Assembly: GCA_035358815.1 (NCBI GenBank)
Contig: DAOPQC010000013.1
Location: forward strand, 9,999-73,998
DNA from: Thermoanaerobaculales bacterium
GTDB taxonomy: Bacteria; Acidobacteriota; Thermoanaerobaculia; Thermoanaerobaculales; Sulfomarinibacteraceae
DNA: 64,000 bases
Direction of reading: 5' to 3'
Shown here: positions 12,437 to 59,487 of the stretch, one piece after another
How positions within the stretch are numbered: position 1 is the stretch's first letter
How the letters are laid out: each line of letters starts with the position of its first letter
Notes under the pieces: generated by a model
Databases searched by the model: none
Told to the model about the DNA's origin: nothing
What the model saw: only the letters and a program-made list of their open reading frames with translations
Translations under genes and position numbers: made by a program

Positions 12437-12743
12437 GATCTAGGATCTGGGATCTAGGGGATAGGGCCGCCGCCCGCTTCCGCTTCCGCGCCCGCTTCCG
12501 TCTCCGTTCCCGTTCCCGTTCCCGTTCCCGATCGCCAGCTCCGTCCTCGAGAGCGCTTCGCGCCCCTCCTCTGGAGGCGCTCTCCGAGGGTGCCACCGCT
12601 GACACTTTCGAGCCTCCGCACTGTGTGCAGCCCGCAGAGATGCGACCCCGAAAGTGTCACCAGTGGCACGCCCGCAGGACGCGATCTCCCGGTACTCGCC
12701 TCGTCATCCGGGCGCGGAAGCGGAAGGGCAAGCGGAAGCGGTG
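12437..12743 (+). repeat. mosaic intergenic repeat, copy 2 (A-B-C-D-E-F-G-B')
   Basis: A at 12437-12467 (GGATCTAGGATCTGGGATCTAGGGGATAGGG); B at ~12467-12503; C, (CCCGTT)n, at 12504-12530; D at 12541-12589; hairpin core E at 12590-12669 (arms 12590-12610 and 12649-12669); F (GCCCGCAGGACGCG) at 12670-12683; inverted B at 12710-12743. Confidence 0.9.
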
Positions 12744-12778: not shown

Positions 12779-13585
12779 CTACGCGACGCTCAGATGAGAC
12801 GCGATCAGACGCGCCACCCGCGCCGGGTCCTCGAAAAGGTGCAGGTGGCCGAGGCCGGCCAGCACCTCGAGCCGCGCACCGGGGATCCCGGAGGCGATCT
12901 CCGCGGCCCAGGCCCGGAACCCGGGCAGCTCGAGCTCGCCCACCGTCACCAGGGCCGGCACCGCGATCTCCGCGAGGCGGCCCGCCGCGGTCCACGAGCG
13001 CTCGACCCGGTCGCGCTCGGTGGCGAGGTACTCGGCGCCCGGGAAGCCGCCGACCAGCTCGGCCAGCCGCTCCCGCACGGCGGGCCGCGCGATCGACCCC
13101 TGCCACAGCGGGCTTTCGAGCCAGGGCCCGAGCATGGCAGCGCGGATGCCGTCGCGGCGGGCGGTGCGGGCGACCTCGCGCAGGGTGGCGAGGAACTCGG
13201 GCTCGTACTCCCGGTCCGGCAGCACCGGAGAGAGCAGGACCAGCTCCGACACCCGGCCGGGCATGGTCAGCGCCATCTCGAGGGCGATCCCGCCCCCGAT
13301 CGAGTAGCCGATGACGGCCACCCCCTCGACCCCGGCCGCGTCGAGCACCGCCGCCGCGTCGGCCGCGTGGTCCGTCCAGTGGTAGCCGCGGGACGGCCGG
13401 TCACTGCGGCCGTGGCCGCGCAGGTCGTAGCGCACGGTGCGCCGGCCGGCGGCGTGGAGCGGACCTGCCACGTCGTCCCAGATCCTCAGGTCCAGGGTGT
13501 GGCCGTGGATCAGCAGCACGGGCTCGCCCTGGCCCTCGTCGAGGACGTGGATCCGCACGCCGTCCGCAGACGTCACTTCGTTCAC
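12779..13585 (-). CDS. alpha/beta-fold hydrolase
   Basis: 268 aa with HG oxyanion motif LLIHGH and nucleophile elbow GYSIGG. Confidence 0.75.
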   Translation of the reverse strand: MNEVTSADGVRIHVLDEGQGEPVLLIHGHTLDLRIWDDVAGPLHAAGRRTVRYDLRGHGRSDRPSRGYHWTDHAADAAAVLDAAGVEGVAVIGYSIGGGIALEMALTMPGRVSELVLLSPVLPDREYEPEFLATLREVARTARRDGIRAAMLGPWLESPLWQGSIARPAVRERLAELVGGFPGAEYLATERDRVERSWTAAGRLAEIAVPALVTVGELELPGFRAWAAEIASGIPGARLEVLAGLGHLHLFEDPARVARLIASHLSVA

Positions 13586-13597
13586 CCGACCACCCTA

Positions 13598-13830
13598 CCA
13601 GGGGTGAGGGGTCAGGGGTTAGTGGTCCGGCCCCCCCGCCCGCTCTCGTCACGGCGAAGCCAACGGCGAAGCCGGATCCGCATCCGCACCCGCATCCATC
13701 CCCGCTCCTGTCTCCGCTCCCGTTCCCGTTCCCGTTCCCGTTCCCGAAAACGGACGAACCGGCCGGCACAGCGTCACCCGTGCGCGGGTGCGGGGGACAA
13801 AACCCGCTTCCGCTCCCATACCCGGGATTG
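13598..13830. repeat. mosaic intergenic repeat, copy 3 (A-like, H, B-like, C)
   Basis: A-like CAGGGGTGAGGGGTCAGGGGTTAG; module H GTCACGGCGAAGCCAACGGCGAAGCC; B-like GGATCCGCATCCGC; (CCCGTT)n at ~13717-13746. Confidence 0.8.
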
Positions 13831-14967: not shown

Positions 14968-15168
14968 GGGGTAGGGGCTGGAGGTTAGGGGCACACCCGT
15001 TCGTTCCCGTTCCCGTTCCCGAAAAGCACGATCAGGCCCCCGGGCCGTCACTGGGCATCCGGCGCCGCTCCCAGCTTCGCCGTGACACGCGGGCGCGGAA
15101 ACGGGCGCGGGCCGGAGCCCTCACCCCCGACCCCCAGATGCTATCCCCTATCCCCTGACCCCTGGCCG
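14965..15168. repeat. mosaic intergenic repeat, copy 4 (A ... C ... H' ... inverted A)
   Basis: Left end TAGGGGGTAGGGGCTGGAGGTTAGGGGC; (CCCGTT)n at ~14996-15021; CTTCGCCGTGAC (inverted module H); right end CCAGATGCTATCCCCTATCCCCTGACCCCTGG, which is the inverse of the A-type block. Confidence 0.8.
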
Positions 15169-16010: not shown

Positions 16011-16285
16011 AGGGGCTAGGATCTGGGATCTAGGGGATAGGGCCCGCCGCCCGCATCCGCGACCGCTTCCGGGTTTTTCCCCGTTCCCGTTCCCGTTCCC
16101 GTCCCCGTTCCCGTTCCCGTCCCCGTTCCCGTTCCCGCTCGTTCGCTCCGTCCTCGAGATCGCTTTGCACCGATTCTCTGGAGGCGCTCCCCGGGGTTGC
16201 CACCTTTGGCATTTCAGGCCTCGAGCACCCCTTGAGGAGGAATGTCGTCCTGAAATCGCCAAAGATGGCACGCCCGCAGGACGCG
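16011..16285 (+). repeat. mosaic intergenic repeat, copy 5 (A-B-C-D-E(subfamily II)-F)
   Basis: A at 16011-16041; the longest hexamer array, (CCCGTT/CCCGTC)n with ~9-10 units, at 16079-16136; D at 16146-16195; hairpin core at 16199-16269 (arms GCCACCTTTGGCATTTCAGG and CCTGAAATCGCCAAAGATGGC); F at 16270-16285. Confidence 0.9.
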
Positions 16286-16307
16286 GTTCCCGCAAACTGG
16301 CCCCGCG

Positions 16308-17852
16308 TCACTTCAGCCGCGTGAACGCGCCCTCCGGCTGAAGCAGGCTGCGGCAGCGGTAGAGCAGGACCGAGCGGATCACCTTGCCGTCGCGTTCGAT
16401 CTCGATCGGCGGCTCGGCGCGGACCTCCTCGAAGAGGCCGCGCAGCACCTGCTCCTGGCCTTCCCGATCGGTGACGAACAGCATGTCCCGCCCTGCGAGC
16501 TCCCCGGGTCGGTACCAGTAGAGCGAGGCCAACCCGTGCTTGCCGCCGCGGATGTTGGCGAGCCGGGTCGGCAGCCGCCCTCCGGACAGGAAGGCGTAGA
16601 GGTGGACGTCGCTGTAGCTCTCCGACGCCACCAGCTCGTCTGGCCGGCGCAGCGCCTCCAGGCGGGCGACGATCTCGTCGTTGCCGACCAGCTCGGCGAG
16701 GGCGCCGGTCGAGATCCTCTTCGGCTGCCCGCGGTAGCTCCAGGAAACGGCCAGCAGCCGTTCCGGCTGGAGCACGATCGCGACCGCTGCCAGCGACAGG
16801 CCGAGCCCCACCACCGCCCCGCACGCCACCAGCGCCGACCGGCCGCGGAACGCGACCAGGACCAGCAGCACCGCGGCGACCACGACACCGGTGGTCCCCC
16901 AGTGCGGGGACACCCGGGTGCGCAGCCCGACGGCGGCAAACAGCGCCAGTGGAAGCACGGCGGCCAGGCGGGCCGCGAGCCAGTCGGGTCGGCATGGCCG
17001 ACGCGAGCGCCACCAGGCGACGGCGAAGGCTGCCAGCAGGAAGGGCGTCAGCAGCAGCGCGATGGCGCCCAGGTACTCGCCCAGGTAGGTGAGGGTGAAG
17101 CCGGTGTCGGTGTGGCGGCCCTGGAGCTGGAATCGGATGTTGTCCCAGTCGTGCTGGACGGCCCACACCCACACCGGAAGCGTGAGCCCGCAGCTCAGCG
17201 CCGCCGCCAGGTACGGCACCGGCGTCCGCAGATGGCCGCGCGCCGGCCCCCGGAGGATGGCCGGCACGACCGCCGGCAGCACGGTGACAATGGGGAACTT
17301 GGCGAGGAACCCGAGGCCGGCGGCGATCCCGAAGCCCCACCACGCGCGCTGCTCTCCCTGGGCCAGCGCGACCGCAGCCCACGCCGCTCCGAGGTAGGCG
17401 GCCGCCATCGCGATGTCGGTGGACGCGTAGAACGAGCCCAGGAACATCAGCGGCGTCAGGTGCAGCACGAGGTAGGCAAGCGCGGCGTGGCGGGGGGTGC
17501 CGCCGAGCCGGCGCGCCAGCGGCAGCAGCATCAGACCGATCAAAAGGCTTGCGACGACCGCCGGCGCGCGGACCGCGAGCCGGGTCTCGCCGAGCACGGC
17601 CCGGAACGGGGCCATCGCCCAGATCACCAGCTTCGGCTGGTCGAAGGTGCTCCACTCGGCGTGGCGCGAGCAGTCCCAGTAGTAGGCCTCGTCGCCCGAG
17701 ACCGGCAGCGCGACGGCCAGCACGATGTGGAGCGCGGTCAGGGCGAGCAGCACGGCGGCGAAGCAGCGAAGCCCCGCGAGTCGGTCACCCTCGGGCAGCG
17801 CGGTCGAGGACCCCGCGCCGTCGGCGGTCACAGGCGTCGGCGCAGCTTCCAC
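16308..17852 (-). CDS. ArnT/PMT-like (GT39/GT83-type) membrane glycosyltransferase
   Basis: 514 aa and polytopic, with the N-terminal loop motif SGDEAYYWDCSRH typical of the family. It overlaps the upstream GT2 gene by 25 nt. Confidence 0.7.
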   Translation of the reverse strand: MEAAPTPVTADGAGSSTALPEGDRLAGLRCFAAVLLALTALHIVLAVALPVSGDEAYYWDCSRHAEWSTFDQPKLVIWAMAPFRAVLGETRLAVRAPAVVASLLIGLMLLPLARRLGGTPRHAALAYLVLHLTPLMFLGSFYASTDIAMAAAYLGAAWAAVALAQGEQRAWWGFGIAAGLGFLAKFPIVTVLPAVVPAILRGPARGHLRTPVPYLAAALSCGLTLPVWVWAVQHDWDNIRFQLQGRHTDTGFTLTYLGEYLGAIALLLTPFLLAAFAVAWWRSRRPCRPDWLAARLAAVLPLALFAAVGLRTRVSPHWGTTGVVVAAVLLVLVAFRGRSALVACGAVVGLGLSLAAVAIVLQPERLLAVSWSYRGQPKRISTGALAELVGNDEIVARLEALRRPDELVASESYSDVHLYAFLSGGRLPTRLANIRGGKHGLASLYWYRPGELAGRDMLFVTDREGQEQVLRGLFEEVRAEPPIEIERDGKVIRSVLLYRCRSLLQPEGAFTRLK

Positions 17853-18499: not shown

Positions 18500-18596
18500 C
18501 TCCGGGATCACGGGGTCGGGAGCCGTGGCATCCTCCTTCGGTTCGGACGTGCGGATTGTAGCAAAGCGCGCTCGTTCCAACGGCGCACCACTTCTC

Positions 18597-18708
18597 CGTC
18601 CCCGTTCCCGTTCCCGTCCCCGTTCCCGGGTGGTTGACCGCACCGGCAGATGGCGACCAAAGAGCCACGCAATCGTCGGGAACGGGCACGGGAACGGTAG
18701 CGGGAACG
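18597..18708. repeat. mosaic repeat, copy 6: inverted pair of hexamer arrays
   Basis: (CCCGTT/CCCGTC)n at 18597-18628 and (GGGAAC)n-like at 18677-18708, flanking ~48 nt. Together they could form a long imperfect hairpin. Confidence 0.8.
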
Positions 18709-23049: not shown

Positions 23050-23216
23050 CACCCGCATCCGCGCCCCGCTTCCGCGCCCGCTTCCGGATTCGTCCCGGTC
23101 CCCGCCCCCGCCCCCGGTTGCGGCCTTTGAACTGGCGATGCAGCGCGCTCGGCGACCGCCAGCCCACACGACACTCTGAAATCCGTCATTTCGGGAACGG
23201 GAGCGGGAACGGGAAC
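23050..23216. repeat. mosaic intergenic repeat, copy 7 (B ... inverted hexamer array)
   Basis: Module B: CCCGCATCCGCGCCCCGCTTCCGCGCCCGCTTCCGG at 23052-23087. Hexamer array (GGGAAC)n-like at ~23192-23217. Confidence 0.75.
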
Positions 23217-25101: not shown

Positions 25102-25455
25102 CTAGACGAATTCGGAGTACAGGCGCGCGCCAACCAGACGGCTGAGCAGACGCCCCTTGCCGGCCAACGCGCCGCGGTCGAGCACCAGCAGCAGGAAGTA
25201 GCCGGCGGCCAGGCTGGTCAGGATCATCAGGCGGTCCTCGGTCCACACCGACACCTGCTCGAGGCTGCCGTGGTCGAACTCCCGGCCCGCCCGGTCGATC
25301 CCGGCCACCACCGCCGCGAGCTCGGTGCCGAGCGCCTCCAGCGAGCGGTCCGCCGGGGTGGAGGCCACCGGGATCCCGTCGGGATCGACGATCGCCGCCC
25401 CCCGGGAGCCCGGGCAGCGCTCGACCAGCTTGACGATCTCAGCCTCGAAGTTCAC
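25102..25455 (-). CDS. Roadblock/LC7 (MglB-like) domain protein
   Basis: 117 aa. The pattern GSRGAAIVDPDGIPVAS ... MILTSLAAGYFLLLVL matches the Roadblock/LC7 fold signature. The ATG overlaps the upstream TGA (ATGA). Confidence 0.6.
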   Translation of the reverse strand: MNFEAEIVKLVERCPGSRGAAIVDPDGIPVASTPADRSLEALGTELAAVVAGIDRAGREFDHGSLEQVSVWTEDRLMILTSLAAGYFLLLVLDRGALAGKGRLLSRLVGARLYSEFV

Positions 25456-27053
25456 GGGCCGCGCCGCTCAGAGCCCAGTCTAATGGTGTCGAGCCAGCCC
25501 CGCAACGCCGCCACCTTGGCCGCGGGCGAGCTGACGCGCTTCCCCTCCGGCGAGGCCTCGCCCTGCAGCTCCGCCAGATAGCCCGCGGCCTCGAGGTTGT
25601 CGGGCTCGCGCTCGAGCAGGCGCTCCAGGGTGGTCACCGCGAGGCCCCACGCGCCCTGGTGGGCGGCGAGCCGGGCCAGGGTCAGGGTCGGCAGCGGGCC
25701 TTCGTCAGCCTCCGCTTCGAGCCCGAGGGCGGGCGCGGGCGCCATCTCGTCCCCGATCGCGGCCGGCGGGGCGGGCGCGGGCTCGCCGCCGAGCTCCAGG
25801 GCCAGGTCGGCCCACGACTCGGGCTCGAGCTCGTCCCGGACCTCGGGCGCGGCCGCGGGCAGCGGCGTCACCGCGACCTGCTCCACCGGAACGAACGGGC
25901 CCTCCAGACCGGGCGGCGGGGTCCTCTCGAAGATCTCGTCCAGGGTCTCGGCCTCGGCCCGCTCGGCGCCCTCGAACAGCTCGGCAAGGTCGGCCGCCGC
26001 GATCGGCTCGAAGGCCTCGATCGGCCCGGCGGGCACAACCGGCTCGACCGGCTCGAGTGGCCCGGCCGGCGCAGGCCCCGGCAGCGCGGCCACCTCGGTC
26101 GCCACGTCGGCCCACGACTCGGGCTCCGCCTCGACCGGCGCCGGCTCGAACGGGCGCAGCGCCTCGACGACCGCCTCGTCCACGGGCGGCGCCTCCAGGA
26201 CAGGCGGCGGCTCCGTCAGGGGCAGCGGTTCGACGACCGGCGCAGCCTCCTCGCGGGGCGCGAACACGTCACCGGCACTCTCCCCCAGGGGGATCCCGAC
26301 TCCGGTCAGCTCGCCGAACGGGTCACCGTCGGCGATCCGCACGACCTCGGCGGGCGGCCGCAGCCGCCACTCGAGCAGCGCCATGCGGGCCGCGGCCTCG
26401 GCGGCCTCCTCCGCGGCGCGCCGCGCCTCCTCCTCGGCCCTGCGGGCCTCCTCTGCCGCTCGCTGCGCCTCCTCCTCCGCGAGCCTCCGCGCCTCCTCGG
26501 CGGCCCGGCGCGCCTCCTCCTCGGCGAGCCGCGCTTCCTCGGCCGCTCGCCGCGCTTCCTCCTCGGCCGCCCGCCGCGCCTCCTCCTCGGCTTTCCGCGC
26601 CTCCTCCTCGGCGACCCGCGCCCGCTCGGCGGCGGCCGCCGCCTCGAGCTCGGCGATCCGGCCGTCGACCTCGGCGATCAGGGCCGCCAGCTCGGAGTCG
26701 GCGGCGGCGAGAGGGCGCACCTGCTCGAGCGCGGCGGCGGCGGCAGGCCAGTCCGAGGCCGCGGTGGCCGCCTCGGCGACCGCGCGCGCCGCCACCGGCT
26801 GGGCCTGGTCGAGGGCGTGGGCGCGGGCGAAGGCGGCCGCCGCGCCGTCCGAGTCCGCCTGGCCGCGCAGGCCGCGGCCGAGCGCGACCCAGGCCGCGGC
26901 CGTGCGCGGGTGGTGCTCGAGGCCGCTGCGCAGCACGTCGATCGCCTCGGCGGCTTGGCCGTCGGCCTGGAGCAGCTCGGCGAGGCGCAGGAAGACCCGC
27001 GACGAGGGGTCCTCGCGCAGCTGGTAGCGCAGGCGCTCGATGCGGTAGCTCAT
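25452..27053 (-). CDS. TPR-repeat protein with central charged (EEARRAA)n coiled-coil repeat
   Basis: N- and C-terminal TPR-like helices, with ~12 tandem EEARRAA-type heptads encoded at ~26400-26640. The start is placed at ATG 27053 (MSYRIERLRYQL). Confidence 0.6.
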   Translation of the reverse strand: MSYRIERLRYQLREDPSSRVFLRLAELLQADGQAAEAIDVLRSGLEHHPRTAAAWVALGRGLRGQADSDGAAAAFARAHALDQAQPVAARAVAEAATAASDWPAAAAALEQVRPLAAADSELAALIAEVDGRIAELEAAAAAERARVAEEEARKAEEEARRAAEEEARRAAEEARLAEEEARRAAEEARRLAEEEAQRAAEEARRAEEEARRAAEEAAEAAARMALLEWRLRPPAEVVRIADGDPFGELTGVGIPLGESAGDVFAPREEAAPVVEPLPLTEPPPVLEAPPVDEAVVEALRPFEPAPVEAEPESWADVATEVAALPGPAPAGPLEPVEPVVPAGPIEAFEPIAAADLAELFEGAERAEAETLDEIFERTPPPGLEGPFVPVEQVAVTPLPAAAPEVRDELEPESWADLALELGGEPAPAPPAAIGDEMAPAPALGLEAEADEGPLPTLTLARLAAHQGAWGLAVTTLERLLEREPDNLEAAGYLAELQGEASPEGKRVSSPAAKVAALRGWLDTIRLGSERRGP

Positions 27054-27070
27054 GGCGTCGCCATTATGAC

Positions 27071-27107
27071 AAAAAAAAAGAACGGCCGGGCCGCGGGGCC
27101 CGGCCGT
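27071..27107 (-). terminator. canonical rho-independent terminator of the pil operon
   Basis: On the minus strand: ACGGCCGGGCC-CCGC-GGCCCGGCCGT (27107-27082) followed by TCTTTTTTTTTG. It lies 12 nt after the stop of the 27120..29747 gene. Confidence 0.85.
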
Positions 27108-27119
27108 GGTCTCCATCGG

Positions 27120-36212: not shown

Positions 36213-36537
36213 CTGCCCGCTTCCGCGCCCGCCCCCCTTCGTTCCCGCTCCCGTTCCCGTTCCCCCCCGCTCGTTCGCCTCGTCCTCGAAGACGCTTCGC
36301 GCCGATTCTCTGAAGGTGCTCCCCGAGGGAGCCACCTTTGGCGATTTCTGGACTCCAGAACTTCTTCAGGAGGAACGTCGCCCCCGAAATCGCCAAAGAT
36401 GGCACGCCCGCAGGACGCCCTCACCTCGTGCTCGCCTCGACCCGGGCGCGGATCCGGCGTCGTCCTGCGGCCGACGCCGTAACAAGAGCGGGCGGGGGGG
36501 ACTCTCCCTAGATACTATTCCCCAGATCCTAGATCCT
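36213..36537 (+). repeat. mosaic intergenic repeat, copy 8 (B-C-D-E(subfamily II)-F-G ... inverted A)
   Basis: B at 36213-36235; C at ~36238-36266; D at 36279-36330; hairpin core at 36331-36403 (arms GCCACCTTTGGCGATTTC and GAAATCGCCAAAGATGGC); F at 36404-36418; right end CCCTAGATACTATTCCCCAGATCCTAGATCC (inverted A). Confidence 0.9.
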
Positions 36538-38774: not shown

Positions 38775-39408
38775 GTAGGGGCTAGGATCTGGGGGCTAGG
38801 GCCACCCGCCCTCTCCTTCCGACACCGCGCCCGCTTGTCACGGCGAAGTGACAGGCGAAGCCGGATCCGCTTCCGCGCCCGCTTCCGCGCCCGCTTCCGG
38901 ATTTGTCCCCTTCCCCCTACCCGTGCCCGTTCCCGTTCTCGCTCAATCGCCCGATCCTCGAGAGCGCTTCGCGCCGATTCTCTGGAGGCGCTCTCCGAGG
39001 GTGCCACCGCTGGCACTTTCGGGCCTCCGCATTGTGTGCTACCCGGAGAGATGCGACGCCGAAAGTGTCACCAGTGGCACGCCCGCAGGACGCGCCTGCC
39101 TCGTACCCGCCCCGCCTCTCGGGCGCGGAAGCGGGCGCGACCGCGTTCCCGTTCCCGTTCCCGTTCCCGTTCCCGCTCAATCGCCCGATCCTCGAGAGCG
39201 CTTCGCGCCGATTCTCTGGAGGCACTCTCCGAGGGTGCCACCGCTGGCACTTTCGGGCCTCCGCATTGTGTGCTACCCGGAGAGATGCGACGCCGAAAGT
39301 GTCACCAGTGGCACGCCCGCAGGACGCGCCTGCCTCGTACCCGCCCCGCCTCTCGGGCGCGGAAGCGGGCGCGGAAGCGGAAGAAGGTACCGCGACGACC
39401 GGCTCGAC
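38775..39408 (+). repeat. mosaic intergenic repeat, copies 9 and 10 (A-H-B-C-[D-E-F-G-B'] x2, 234-bp tandem duplication)
   Basis: A at 38775-38802; H (GTCACGGCGAAGTGACAGGCGAAGCC); B x3 at 38856-38900; hairpin cores at 39001-39080 and 39235-39314; hexamer array at 39145-39175 between the two units. The units are offset by exactly 234 nt. Confidence 0.9.
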
Positions 39409-39444: not shown

Positions 39445-39542
39445 GCAGGCAGGATGCCTGCGCTCAAGCAGGCTGGAAGCCTGCGCTACAAAGCAGGCTG
39501 GAAGCCTGCGCTACAAAGCAGGCTGGAAGCCTGCGCTACAAC
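39445..39542 (-). repeat. tandem array of four 23-25-nt stem-loop units directly after the secF stop
   Basis: Three exact 25-nt units (39468-39492, 39493-39517, 39518-39542). The first two read GCAGGCTGGAAGCCTGCGCTACAAA and the third ends ...CAAC. Each contains the hairpin GCAGGCT-GGA-AGCCTGC. A fourth unit at 39445-39467 carries a compensated stem, GCAGGCA-GGA-TGCCTGC. Confidence 0.85.
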
Positions 39543-44583: not shown

Positions 44584-44890
44584 GGATCTAGGATCTGGGA
44601 TCTAGGGAATGGGCCCCGCCCGTCCCCGCTCCCGCTTCCGCGCCCGCTTCCGGTTCCGCGCCCGACGGGTGAGGCGAGCACGAGGAAGGCGCGTCCTGCG
44701 GGCGTGCCACTGGTGACACTTTCGGGGTCGCATCTCGCCGGGTCGCACACACCACGCGGGGGCCCGAAAGTGTCAGCGGTGGCACCCTCGGGGAGCGCCT
44801 CCAGAGAATCAGCGCGAAGCGCTCTGGAGGACGGAGCTAACACGCGGGCACGGGCACGGAGACGGGCACGGGCAGGGGGAGACCCCCACC
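44584..44890 (-). repeat. mosaic intergenic repeat, copy 11 (A-B then inverted G-F-E-D-C)
   Basis: A at 44584-44613 in forward orientation and B at 44625-44660. The core is inverted: F' at 44690-44703, hairpin at 44704-44785, D' at 44786-44832, and a (GGGCAC/GGGAAC)-like array at 44844-44878. Confidence 0.9.
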
Positions 44891-45240: not shown

Positions 45241-45554
45241 GATCTGGGGGCTAGGATCTAGGGCCCCCGCCCGTGCCCGTGCCCGTTACCGTTTCCGTGC
45301 TGTGGGAGGAGCTCGGAACACGGCCAACCTCAGTCTCGATTTCGCTTCCTAGCACTTTCACTCACAGTGGTATGGCGGCTCGAGTCTCGACGGGCGACCG
45401 CCTGTCCTCGCCACGATGTCCAGCAGACCGCACCGGTGGCCTGAGCGGGTCGAGATCCTATCCCCTGGATCCCAGATCCCAGGGCAAGCCACCCGCCTGG
45501 GGACCGACGGCGTCGAATCCCGTCGGCCCCTAGATCCTAGCCCCCAGATCCTAG
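45237..45554. mobile_element. MITE-like member of the repeat family bounded by perfect 27-bp terminal inverted repeats
   Basis: Left TIR CTAGGATCTGGGGGCTAGGATCTAGGG (45237-45263). Right TIR CCCTAGATCCTAGCCCCCAGATCCTAG (45528-45554), its exact reverse complement. The interior has degenerate C (CCCGTG)n, remnants of the hairpin arms (CACTTTC...CAGTGGTATGGC), and a 7-bp hairpin CCGACGG/CCGTCGG. No ORF. Confidence 0.5.
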
Positions 45555-47377: not shown

Positions 47378-47640
47378 ACGCTTCCGCTTCCCCTTCCGCG
47401 CCCGAGAGGCGAGGCGAGCACGAGGAGAGGGCGTCCTGCGGGCGTGCCACCGGTGACACTTTCGGGGTCGCGTCTCTCCGGGTTGCACACTCCACGCGGG
47501 GGCCCCGAAAGTATCACCGGTGGCACCCTCGGAGAGCGCCTCCAGTGCACCGGCGCGAACCGCTCTCGCGGACGGAGCGAACGAGCGGGAACGGGAACGG
47601 GAACGCGAACGGGAGCGGGAGCGGAAACGTGGACAGGGGA
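47378..47640 (-). repeat. mosaic intergenic repeat, copy 12 (inverted B-G-F-E-D-C)
   Basis: B-like at 47378-47400; G' (GAGGCGAGCACGAGG); F' at 47430-47443; hairpin core at 47444-47526, the best-paired copy with arms GTGCCACCGGTGACACTTTCGG and CCGAAAGTATCACCGGTGGCAC; D' at 47527-47575; (GGGAAC)n at ~47586-47629. Confidence 0.9.
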
Positions 47641-48844: not shown

Positions 48845-48940
48845 CGGCTTCGCCTTCCGGCTCCGTTCTGCGAACTCCGCCGTCACGAGTCGGCTTCGCC
48901 GTGACAAGCGGGAACGGGGACGGGAACGGGGAGGGGTGCG
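48845..48940. repeat. mosaic intergenic repeat, copy 13 (short: H hairpin plus hexamer array)
   Basis: GTCACGAGTCGGCTTCGCCGTGAC (module H and its inverse) followed by (GGGAAC/GGGGAC)n at ~48908-48936. Confidence 0.75.
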
Positions 48941-48961
48941 GGCTCCCCCGACCGACGCCCG

Positions 48962-59145: not shown

Positions 59146-59487
59146 GGATCCAGGGGCTAGGATCTGGGATCTACGGGATAGGGGTCACCCGTCCCCGTTC
59201 CCGTTCCCGTTCCCGAGCCACTCCGCTTCCGCATCGGCTTCCGCGCCCGTCCCCGCTCGCTCGCTCCGTCCTCGAGTTCGCTTCGCGCCGATGCTCTGGA
59301 AGCGCTCCCCGTGGGTGCCACCGCTGACACTTTTGGGGTCCCCGCGCGGTGTGTGCAACCCGGAGAGACGCGGCCCCGAACGTGTCACCAGTGGCACGCC
59401 CGCAGGACGCGATCTGCTTGTGCTCGCCTCGCCTTGCGGAAGCGGGCGGGCGGGGGCGCTATCCCCTATCCCCCAGATCCTAGATCC
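59146..59487 (+). repeat. mosaic intergenic repeat, copy 14 (complete A-C-B-D-E-F-G-B'-A')
   Basis: A at 59146-59184; C at 59188-59215; B-like at 59222-59250; D at 59266-59314; hairpin core at 59315-59397; F at 59398-59411; G (CTTGTGCTCGCCTCG); B' (GCGGAAGCGGGCGGGCGG); A' at 59459-59487 (CTATCCCCTATCCCCCAGATCCTAGATCC). The M16 TAG stop (59480-59482) lies inside A'. Confidence 0.9.

Follow-up and report, generated by a model that had tools for sequence, protein, structure and literature searches.

A non-coding palindromic repeat family between the housekeeping genes of a few uncultured Holophagae (Acidobacteriota)

The stretch of DNA analysed here, referred to as the window, comprises 64,000 nucleotides of contig DAOPQC010000013.1 (positions 9,999 to 73,998; GenBank assembly GCA_035358815.1) from a Thermoanaerobaculales bacterium of the phylum Acidobacteriota and has a G+C content of 71.6%. 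Between its genes lie eight copies of a long imperfect hairpin, termed E, that fall into two subfamilies by arm sequence and of which none would be expected by chance. E forms the core of a family of palindromic, non-coding repeats, previously undescribed, that resides between housekeeping genes in a few uncultured Holophagae, and no description of these repeats in Holophagae was found in the literature searched. All copies are situated between called genes and their neighbours are core genes, encoding for example a GlmM-type mutase, L28, RelA/SpoT, SecF, LolA and a GGDEF protein, or forming a cluster of rlmB-like, ispD and frr genes.

The hairpin is followed by a fixed 13-nt tail, GCCCGCAGGACGC, that is present on one side of E only. 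Together with this tail the subfamily I copies occupy 12590..12682 (E at 12590-12669, tail at 12670-12682), 39001..39093, 39235..39327 and 59315..59410 on the plus strand and 44691..44785 and 47431..47526 on the minus strand, and the subfamily II copies occupy 16199..16284 and 36331..36418, both on the plus strand. The copies at 39001 and 39235 belong to two tandem units with a period of 234, the copy at 44691 resides in a divergent intergenic region between a LolA-like gene and a DUF3467 gene, and the 5' arm of the copy at 16199 has a 1-nt deletion. An initial annotation, made from the letters of the window, had already proposed eight copies in two subfamilies at the same hairpin coordinates, and this is borne out by several lines of analysis. 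A pattern for the subfamily I arm gives 12 matches that make up six hairpins exactly where they had been placed, with no match in 100 shuffles; the 18-mer GGCACGCCCGCAGGACGC, which spans the end of the 3' arm and the right flank, recurs unchanged in all eight copies; and a covariance model built from 86 copies recovers precisely these eight (62-101 bits) with no additional degenerate copy in the window. Direct reading of 12590-12669 also returned the sequence as it had been written. The flanks had been described as constant, which holds for the right flank; the left flank is less uniform than claimed, with the variants CTGAAGGTGCTCCCCGAGG at 36.3 kb, ..GGCACTCTCC.. at 39.2 kb and ..CCCCGTGG at 59.3 kb.

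E forms the centre of a conserved D-E-tail-F unit of about 185 nt that is nested between inverted period-6 (CCGNNN)n tracts. Module D is about 62 nt long (CGCTCGTTCGCTCCGTCCTCGAGAGCGCTTCGCGCCGATTCTCTGGAGGCGCTCCCCGAGG) and contains, as initially annotated, an inverted repeat (CCTCGAGAGCGC / GCGCTC(T/C)CCGAGG) that is bulged and about 11-12 bp in length. Module F is about 30 nt long (sCTyTCCtCGTACTCGCCTCGCCTCCCGGGC). The units extend over 12528..12713 (D 12528-12589, F 12683-12713), 36267..36449 and 59253..59441 on the plus strand and over 44660..44847 and 47400..47588 on the minus strand. On the plus strand there is also a unit at 16135..16315, whose degenerate F abuts the stop of the gene at 16308, and a pair of tandem units at 38939..39358 (38939-39124 and 39173-39358) with a (CCCGTT)n tract linking them. 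Beyond the unit, conservation fades into the period-6 tracts, with (CCGNNN)n on the left and its inverse on the right. For example, the 12.6 kb element has its left tract at 12474..12533 and an inverted partner of the GCGGAA/GCGGGC type at approximately 12714-12741, the 16.2 kb element has a left (CCGNNN)n / (CCCGTT)n tract at 16051..16139, and the 44.7 kb unit lies beside a hexamer tract at 44614..44667 with its partner at 44842-44877. At several sites the outermost components are stop-rich modules, CTAGGATCTGGGATCTAGGG and its inverse. The hexamer scaffold is also found in spacers that carry other centres and lack E.

Several features of these spacers can be recorded alongside the units. Period-6 tracts are present on both flanks of every E unit and fill many other spacers, including ones without E (1287-1355, 13672-13749, 14996-15110, 18596-18703, 23066-23213, 45264-45287 and 48907-48942), and many of them fit the G-quadruplex pattern G3-N1-7 x4, on opposite strands at the two sides. 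The outermost stop-codon-rich module CTAGGATCTGGGATCTAGGGGATAGGG occurs at 1162, 12440, 16016, 38782, 44588, 45237, 45251 and 59157 and its inverse, CCCTATCCCC..AGATCCTAG, at 36524, 45532, 45546 and 59475, so that the layout is a nested palindrome running from TAGGGG-type module through C-hexamers, centre and G-hexamers to CCCCTA-type module. A further module, GTCACGGCGAAG..AACGGCGAAGCCGGATCCGC, is located at 13650-13690 and 38835-38870, with its inverse CTTCGCCGTGAC near 15075 and 48895, and is also present in loci L042 and L052 of the relatives described below. Positions 39445-39541 hold a tandem array of period 25 (4 copies, 94% matches) of the small hairpin unit GCAGGCTGGAAGCCTGCGCTACAAA; this array is kept in an orthologous spacer of a relative (L052, approximately 1910-2100) and differs in copy number in the 99%-identical locus L094. 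Unrelated to the hairpin is a 21/42/87-nt tandem repeat at 26390-26695, which lies inside the open reading frame (ORF) 25452-27119 on the minus strand and would encode a low-complexity segment rich in Ala, Glu and Arg.

The stem of E has 21-22 positions per arm with fixed imperfections and encloses a loop of 30-41 nt, and 1626 of 1778 stem cells in the alignment are Watson-Crick. Counted from GCCACC, the fixed mismatch of subfamily II is a C.A at position 5 and those of subfamily I are a C.A and a C.C at positions 6 and 8. Taken alone, each arm is a mini-palindrome: GCCA-CCTT-TGGC and GCCA-AAGA-TGGC in subfamily II, and GTGCCA-CCGC-TGGCAC and GTGTCA-CCAG-TGGCAC, with 6-bp stems, in subfamily I. 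GCCA-N4-TGGC is therefore common to both arms of both subfamilies, and the mismatches of the long stem coincide exactly with the tetraloops of the mini-palindromes. Since the arms are mini-palindromes and the mismatches fall in their tetraloops, E can be described as an inverted doublet of a unit resembling a repetitive extragenic palindrome (REP), which can fold either as one long hairpin or as a clover. The REP-like unit is about 21 nt long, the two units are separated by a freely drifting spacer of 30-40 nt, and the inverted relation reaches past the mini-palindromes (TTTCGGG / CCCGAAA). Single arms are essentially absent, which identifies the doublet and not the lone arm as the unit.

The predicted folds are stable relative to shuffled sequences. 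As DNA, E folds with -26.1 kcal/mol (z = -3.9), and D plus E folded as RNA reach -74 and -86 kcal/mol on the two strands, with z = -3.4 on either strand. The initial annotation had pointed to two variants within subfamily I as covariation. The fully paired arm of the 47.4 kb copy (CACCGGTG/CACCGGTG) is real, with pairs 8-76 and 10-74 formed in that one copy of the 14 of subfamily I. The reported alternation of an inner helix survives in part: one pair does change on both sides (A-U in 5 copies, G-U in 4 and G-C in 5), and the remaining three of its four pairs are constant or merely broken in 1-3 copies.

Relatives were obtained by an exact 19-mer scan over one genome per species, which gave 89 stretches. 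Most of them come from three Holophagae species known as metagenome-assembled genomes (MAGs), MFD00032.bin.2.196 (CAVQXZ01), FeB_10 (PQAJ01) and MFD00709.bin.2.175, and the rest are chance matches within unrelated genes. The loci of these species, designated by L numbers, contain about 84 copies according to the covariance model, only 5 of which lack the exact anchor, and all MAG copies belong to subfamily II. A metagenome scan with the subfamily I arm returned 11 contigs; two of them are 99.2-99.9% identical to the window (activated-sludge assembly; ERZ1645192), and the others are 80-86% relatives that have subfamily I arms and loops that are partly or wholly different. Metagenome contigs hold 15 distinct subfamily I copies, and UPTA01001736 and NODE-3991 of ERZ1645192 are contigs that match the window. 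Viral contigs, plasmids and phages gave no match to the repeat. Only a tRNA reaches the gathering threshold in an Rfam scan of the window; at E <= 10 no family matches the elements, whose best scores are 18-26 bits as compared to gathering scores of 48-126, and no omega-RNA or HEARO-type family of Rfam matches them.

Two further observations from the MAG loci concern the boundaries of E and the history of its subfamilies. In 14 of 93 MAG copies D and E are separated by a 99-nt module X, positioned precisely at the 5' foot of the hairpin, as if it were a second element targeting that foot. Module X (GACTCGCGGCCGGCGGCCGCGGTGACC...GCCGCTGCCGTCGGCAGGT) has small palindromes of its own and is at least 90% conserved (for example L047:320-420, L062, L085, L023 and 10 other MAG copies). 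In FeB_10, where all complete copies are of subfamily II, a lone subfamily-I-like 5' arm, GCCACCCCTGACACTTTCGGGG, follows the end of a D module at L013:72-90. From its sequence this arm may be a relic, and subfamily I may then be older than the lineage of the window.

Comparison of copies within each MAG reveals strong constraint on the arms. Pairs of copies differ at 0.03-0.04 per site in the arms and at 0.29-0.30 per site in the loop; the tail served as the search key for MAG copies and is for that reason left outside the divergence comparison. Between nearest paralogues, too, 3.4-4.3 of 30 loop positions (11-14%) are different as compared to about 1.2 of 42 arm positions (about 3%), and true orthologues between FeB_10 and MFD00032 differ at about 7% of loop positions. 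As the loops of paralogues are more diverged than those of orthologues, most duplications predate the split of these species, with the arms having been kept afterwards. The initial annotation took compensatory changes as an argument for selection on folding, and on this point the larger alignment does not support it. In 14 copies of subfamily I, 12 of 23 outer-stem pairs are invariant and none has a double change, and the covariation score is equalled by 35 of 500 shuffles. Among all 86 copies (RNAalifold) the double changes are the split between subfamilies I and II and one G-C to A-U change shared by the orthologues L022 and L047, and a third double-sided event is the one inner-helix pair; apart from the I/II split these few events do not rise above shuffles. 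Mutual information within the loop links columns that do not pair, and thus reflects lineage haplotypes rather than Watson-Crick pairs. An inverted DNA repeat is complementary by construction, and hairpin-templated repair can restore its complementarity. The selection that is visible acts on the sequence of the arms and not on pairing as such. The non-Watson-Crick pairs of subfamily II, with the fixed mismatch set aside, are mostly A.C on the plus strand (37 versus 9 G.T).

Synteny between the window and MAG loci, at 83-92% identity, allows the fate of individual copies to be followed. At 12.6 and 47.4 kb the window carries subfamily I and FeB_10 carries subfamily II (the 47.4 kb ortholog being in L045) at the same position and in the same orientation, with ordinary divergence of D. 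Of ten orthologous pairs between FeB_10 and MFD00032 (88-97% nucleotide identity), four have E in opposite orientation. The breakpoints of the L022/L047 flip are inside inverted CCGCTTCCGC / GCGGAAGCGG tracts. The loop is unchanged in L022/L047 and L078/L086, which are consequently simple flips, and it differs in L027/L057 and L052/L073, which are consequently replacements; loops are as different as those of paralogues in 6 of 13 orthologous comparisons. In L084:5675-5761 the arms and tail are normal and the 30-nt loop corresponds, with 3 differences, to a common loop type in reverse complement, giving nearly equal covariance-model scores on both strands, which suggests that the loop was flipped by recombination between the two arms. 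Gains and losses are also evident. The double unit at 38.9-39.4 kb is absent from the orthologous MFD00032 spacer (L052), both MAGs have E at a 23.1 kb site where the window has hexamer tracts and another centre, E is present in L048 and L053 where L085 and L083 carry other centres, and L053 has an empty site opposite a unit of 244 bp in L083, each of the two junctions being marked by a 4-nt CGCG. Additionally, L094, which is 99% identical to the window, reveals that the second tandem copy, at 39235..39327, was recently converted by the first in the strain of the window. Turnover is thus a matter of DNA-level events, namely the recombination of inverted and of direct repeats and the insertion or deletion of sequence, and the period-6 tracts are both the scaffold of the units and their inversion breakpoints.

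The orientation of E relative to neighbouring genes, whose direction was taken from a crude gene call based on G+C at third codon positions (GC3), is random. In tandem gene pairs 15-17 copies run along the direction of the genes and 13-14 against it, 22-24 copies are between convergent genes and 10-11 are between divergent genes. Scanning of five copies gave no sigma-70-like promoter and no intrinsic-terminator-like site. ORFs enclosed by inverted copy pairs are a lipoprotein-like one in L040 and the rlmB-like, ispD and frr genes in L099. Both the window (12779-13594, minus strand) and L098 have an alpha/beta-hydrolase gene, which in L098 lies between two direct E copies, and this gene is missing from FeB_10 (L036:5819-6121), which retains one E; this suggests gain or loss of the gene through recombination between repeat copies.

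Known repeat systems offer several points of comparison. REPINs consist of two invariant inverted ends and a less conserved spacer, adopt hairpin or clover folds and form tandem clusters (PMC3116915). E is similar to REPINs and their associated RAYT system (Bertels & Rainey 2011, PMC3116915) in that conserved inverted ends, each over a short palindrome, surround a less conserved spacer. As with REPINs, it can fold as a long hairpin or clover, it is extragenic with tens or more copies and occasional tandem clusters, it persists vertically at orthologous sites and it has subfamilies within one genome. Unlike REPINs, E has a fixed one-sided tail, is part of a larger D-E-F unit and is embedded in period-6 inverted tracts, and its host belongs to the Holophagae of the Acidobacteriota rather than to the Proteobacteria or Cyanobacteria. 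Nor was a RAYT gene found in the DNA searched, which consisted of the window and 100 loci, or about 0.8 Mb beside the copies, a small part of the genomes and the part where REPtron-type genes are expected. REPs carry GTAG (or CGTC) at their foot, and a CGTC is found 8 nt beyond the 3' arm of E on the opposite strand.

The mosaic of palindromic units and short motifs, with modules gained, lost and shuffled among sites, is also reminiscent of E. coli BIMEs (whose protein partners include IHF and gyrase), the mosaic intergenic repeats of Neisseria and the BOX elements of S. pneumoniae. In contrast to these, the sequences are unrelated and the modules, comprising D, E, F, X, hexamer tracts and CTAGG-type ends, are its own. 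[quoted passage not shown] Integron attC sites, which are recognised as a folded single strand, resemble E in that an inverted repeat, imperfect and with mismatches that are conserved, surrounds a variable centre, but E lacks an R/L core (GTTRRRY), a cassette array and an integrase, and its copies are kilobases apart among housekeeping genes. Inspection of TGGCACG by eye as part of an attC site or a sigma-54 promoter led to rejection of both, as the cores and the -12 element are absent. Closest to home, Acidobacteria are reported to carry TIRYT and class-3 TnpA-Y1 genes with atypical, non-GTAG flanking hairpins that can reach hundreds per genome and have a CnGA foot (PMC3733652; PMC6006769). 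Compared by description, the TIRYT "TIRtrons" and class-3 TnpA-Y1 systems of Acidobacteria and Planctomycetes resemble E in being many-copy, non-GTAG hairpins of the same phylum. CnGA is reported 5' of class-3 structures, and in most copies of E the stem is preceded, at a distance of 4 nt, by CCGA, and in several by CCGG or CCGT; by analogy, this foot may be regarded as a lead. Unlike those systems, no class-3 (NHVH ... YV[VI]xEQ) or TIRYT gene was found in the 0.8 Mb.

The anatomy, distribution, pattern of constraint, independence of orientation and turnover of E are matters of direct observation. On balance, and with confidence only slightly better than even, we favour the reading that E is the core of a new, lineage-restricted mosaic DNA repeat of the REPIN/BIME type whose arms would be recognised sequence-specifically by a protein. 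The arms would be recognition sites of a trans-acting protein that sees a single-strand hairpin, a clover or a cruciform, with the fixed mismatches and one-sided tail giving the site its polarity. Such a protein would most likely be a single-copy HUH/Y1 enzyme (RAYT-, TIRYT- or class-3-TnpA-like) or another recombinase. A change in its recognition specificity could have produced subfamily I, which may then have overrun the subfamily II copies already in place, either by inserting anew or through gene conversion across the common D and F flanks, and flips and replacements would result from recombination between inverted arms and between inverted hexamer tracts. A hairpin recognised by a single-strand transposase had been among the initial suggestions; it gives the best fit to the anatomy, although no such gene was found in the sequence searched.

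A number of results weigh against this REPIN/BIME-like reading. Foremost is the failure to find an enzyme in the searched DNA. A tblastn search with E. coli RayT detected no RAYT (the best match, in L007, was rejected as it is on the strand opposite the likely gene), and six-frame translations had no match to hidden Markov models built from 120 close RAYT homologues or from 116 diverse RAYTs of less than 50% mutual identity, both sets being class-2 RAYTs. Scans of these translations for class-specific HuH/Y motifs, including the class-3 signature, were negative; a sole YIxxNP match was discarded, as it has no HuH motif and no RAYT score and resembles a small membrane-anchored protein. There is also no repeated IS-like gene of at least 350 bp near any copy. 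Other difficulties are found in the repeat itself. Neither arm has GTAG at its foot, where the flanks are instead ..CCCCGAGG(g/t)(t/a) and GCCCGCAGGACGC; there is no dominant master sequence, with 86 of 86 cores distinct; there is no clear target-site duplication, the CGCG junction being a single 4-nt microhomology; and the MAGs show no recent burst, given that the loops of nearest paralogues have diverged further than those of orthologues. Conservation of the arms after duplication needs purifying selection in situ or conversion limited to the arms, and pure selfish copying and decay does not by itself predict it. With no enzyme found, and with MAG copies that are old, all different and intact in their arms, a host-level role or arm-limited conversion is indicated.

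One such host-level role would be exerted by RNA, in that a three-way fold of D and E in untranslated regions or inter-cistronic spacers could stabilise mRNA ends, block exonucleases or serve as the site of an RNase or RNA-binding protein, as has been described for E. coli REPs. This explanation, which we consider unlikely, would operate in either orientation because the stem is palindromic. Both strands do fold well, copies are between genes that include probable operons (L099), convergent sites are somewhat over-represented and divergent ones under-represented, the A.C pairs of subfamily II on the plus strand would be G.U on the minus strand, and conservation of the arms in situ fits a host function. 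However, 10-11 copies reside in divergent regions that contain only promoters, and the asymmetric tail, D and F are conserved like the stem in spite of random orientation and flipping between relatives. The stem moreover lacks the covariation expected of a purely structural RNA, the A.C excess goes back to a small number of shared variants, of which position 19 alone contributes 18 copies, with no such excess in subfamily I, and the five copies scanned have no terminator-like T-run. The structured RNA of the initial annotation, whether 3' untranslated region, small RNA or terminator, is disfavoured by the random orientation, by the flip at four of ten sites and by the lack of a promoter- or terminator-like site in those five copies.

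Alternatively, each arm could act in duplex form as a palindromic, operator-like site of 12-16 bp (GCCA-N4-TGGC core) for a dimeric DNA-binding or nucleoid-associated protein, with no extrusion. Sites paired at a distance of about 55-60 bp would, together with G-quadruplex-prone tracts, constitute supercoiling barriers, insulators or an array that structures the chromosome. Such sites would be expected to be independent of orientation, to conserve arm sequence rather than pairing and to be palindromic within each arm, and copies that are old and maintained in place agree with this. We regard it as improbable all the same, as the TTTCGGG / CCCGAAA extension beyond the mini-palindromes makes E a true inverted repeat of 21-22 nt, subfamily I changed both of its arms at once, the invariant tail on one side and the D and F modules conserved along with it are left unexplained, and no candidate protein is known.

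Little credence is given to the view that the family is a functionless, decaying relic shaped solely by recombination between repeats and hairpin-templated repair. The lack of identical copies and of a transposase in the DNA searched and the abundance of flips, conversions and deletions are what a relic would show, but arms, tail, D and F remain at least 90% identical as compared to about 70% for the loop, even between nearest paralogues. Conversion between copies would have homogenised the loops too, and a new arm subfamily has reached at least six sites in the lineage of the window.

A more speculative possibility, and one that we think quite improbable, is that D-E-tail-F units are not selfish repeats but host-maintained, switchable intergenic cassettes, whose arms and polar tail are read by a dedicated protein other than a RAYT and whose orientation or variant constitutes a heritable, reversible state. 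Frequent inversion and replacement of cassettes would then be driven by the inverted G-quadruplex-prone (CCGNNN)n tracts, and this would be a new kind of DNA-inversion or insulator switch. It is compatible with the data because the arms outlast the species split, four of ten sites have flipped and no transposase was found.

It is very improbable that E is an independent small RNA gene or, as also proposed initially, a guide-RNA-like relic of an IS200/IS605, IscB or TnpB element. A stable fold and conserved flanks are properties that such an RNA would share, but the elements lack an Rfam match even at the permissive threshold used and the scanned copies lack promoter- or terminator-like sites. 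No TnpB, IscB, TnpA-like, IS200/IS605 or other repeated gene is near the copies in the 0.8 Mb, the variable loop shows no pairing covariation, and flips and loop inversion leave the copy intact. Scarcely credible is a micro-ORF (MARPQD...) that opens within the 3' arm, at an ATG in subfamily II and at a GTG in subfamily I, and runs in the frame MARPQDALSSYSPRLPG... through the tail and F, as this was rejected for its variable length of 10 to 190 codons with no conserved stop, for a TAC to TAG change at codon 11 or 1-nt indels in F in several copies and for the lack of a Shine-Dalgarno sequence at a workable distance, despite a start codon retained in both subfamilies and the fact that variation in F is greatest at two positions that are both third-codon positions of this frame.

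In Acidobacteriota that are abundant in wastewater and soil, these elements occupy many of the intergenic spacers, where they will break short-read assemblies, give rise to long spurious ORFs in a genome of 72% G+C and be mistakable for structured RNAs in covariation screens that are blind to the genealogy of copies. If the REPIN/BIME-like reading is true, REPIN-type replicators, which have mostly been studied in Proteobacteria and Cyanobacteria, would extend to the Holophagae in an unusual form, nested in period-6 inverted tracts, with a polar tail and with centres that can be replaced. Such a family would then also constitute a natural experiment in which a repeat co-evolves with its recognition protein, with two arm specificities coexisting and, at orthologous sites, one overwriting the other.

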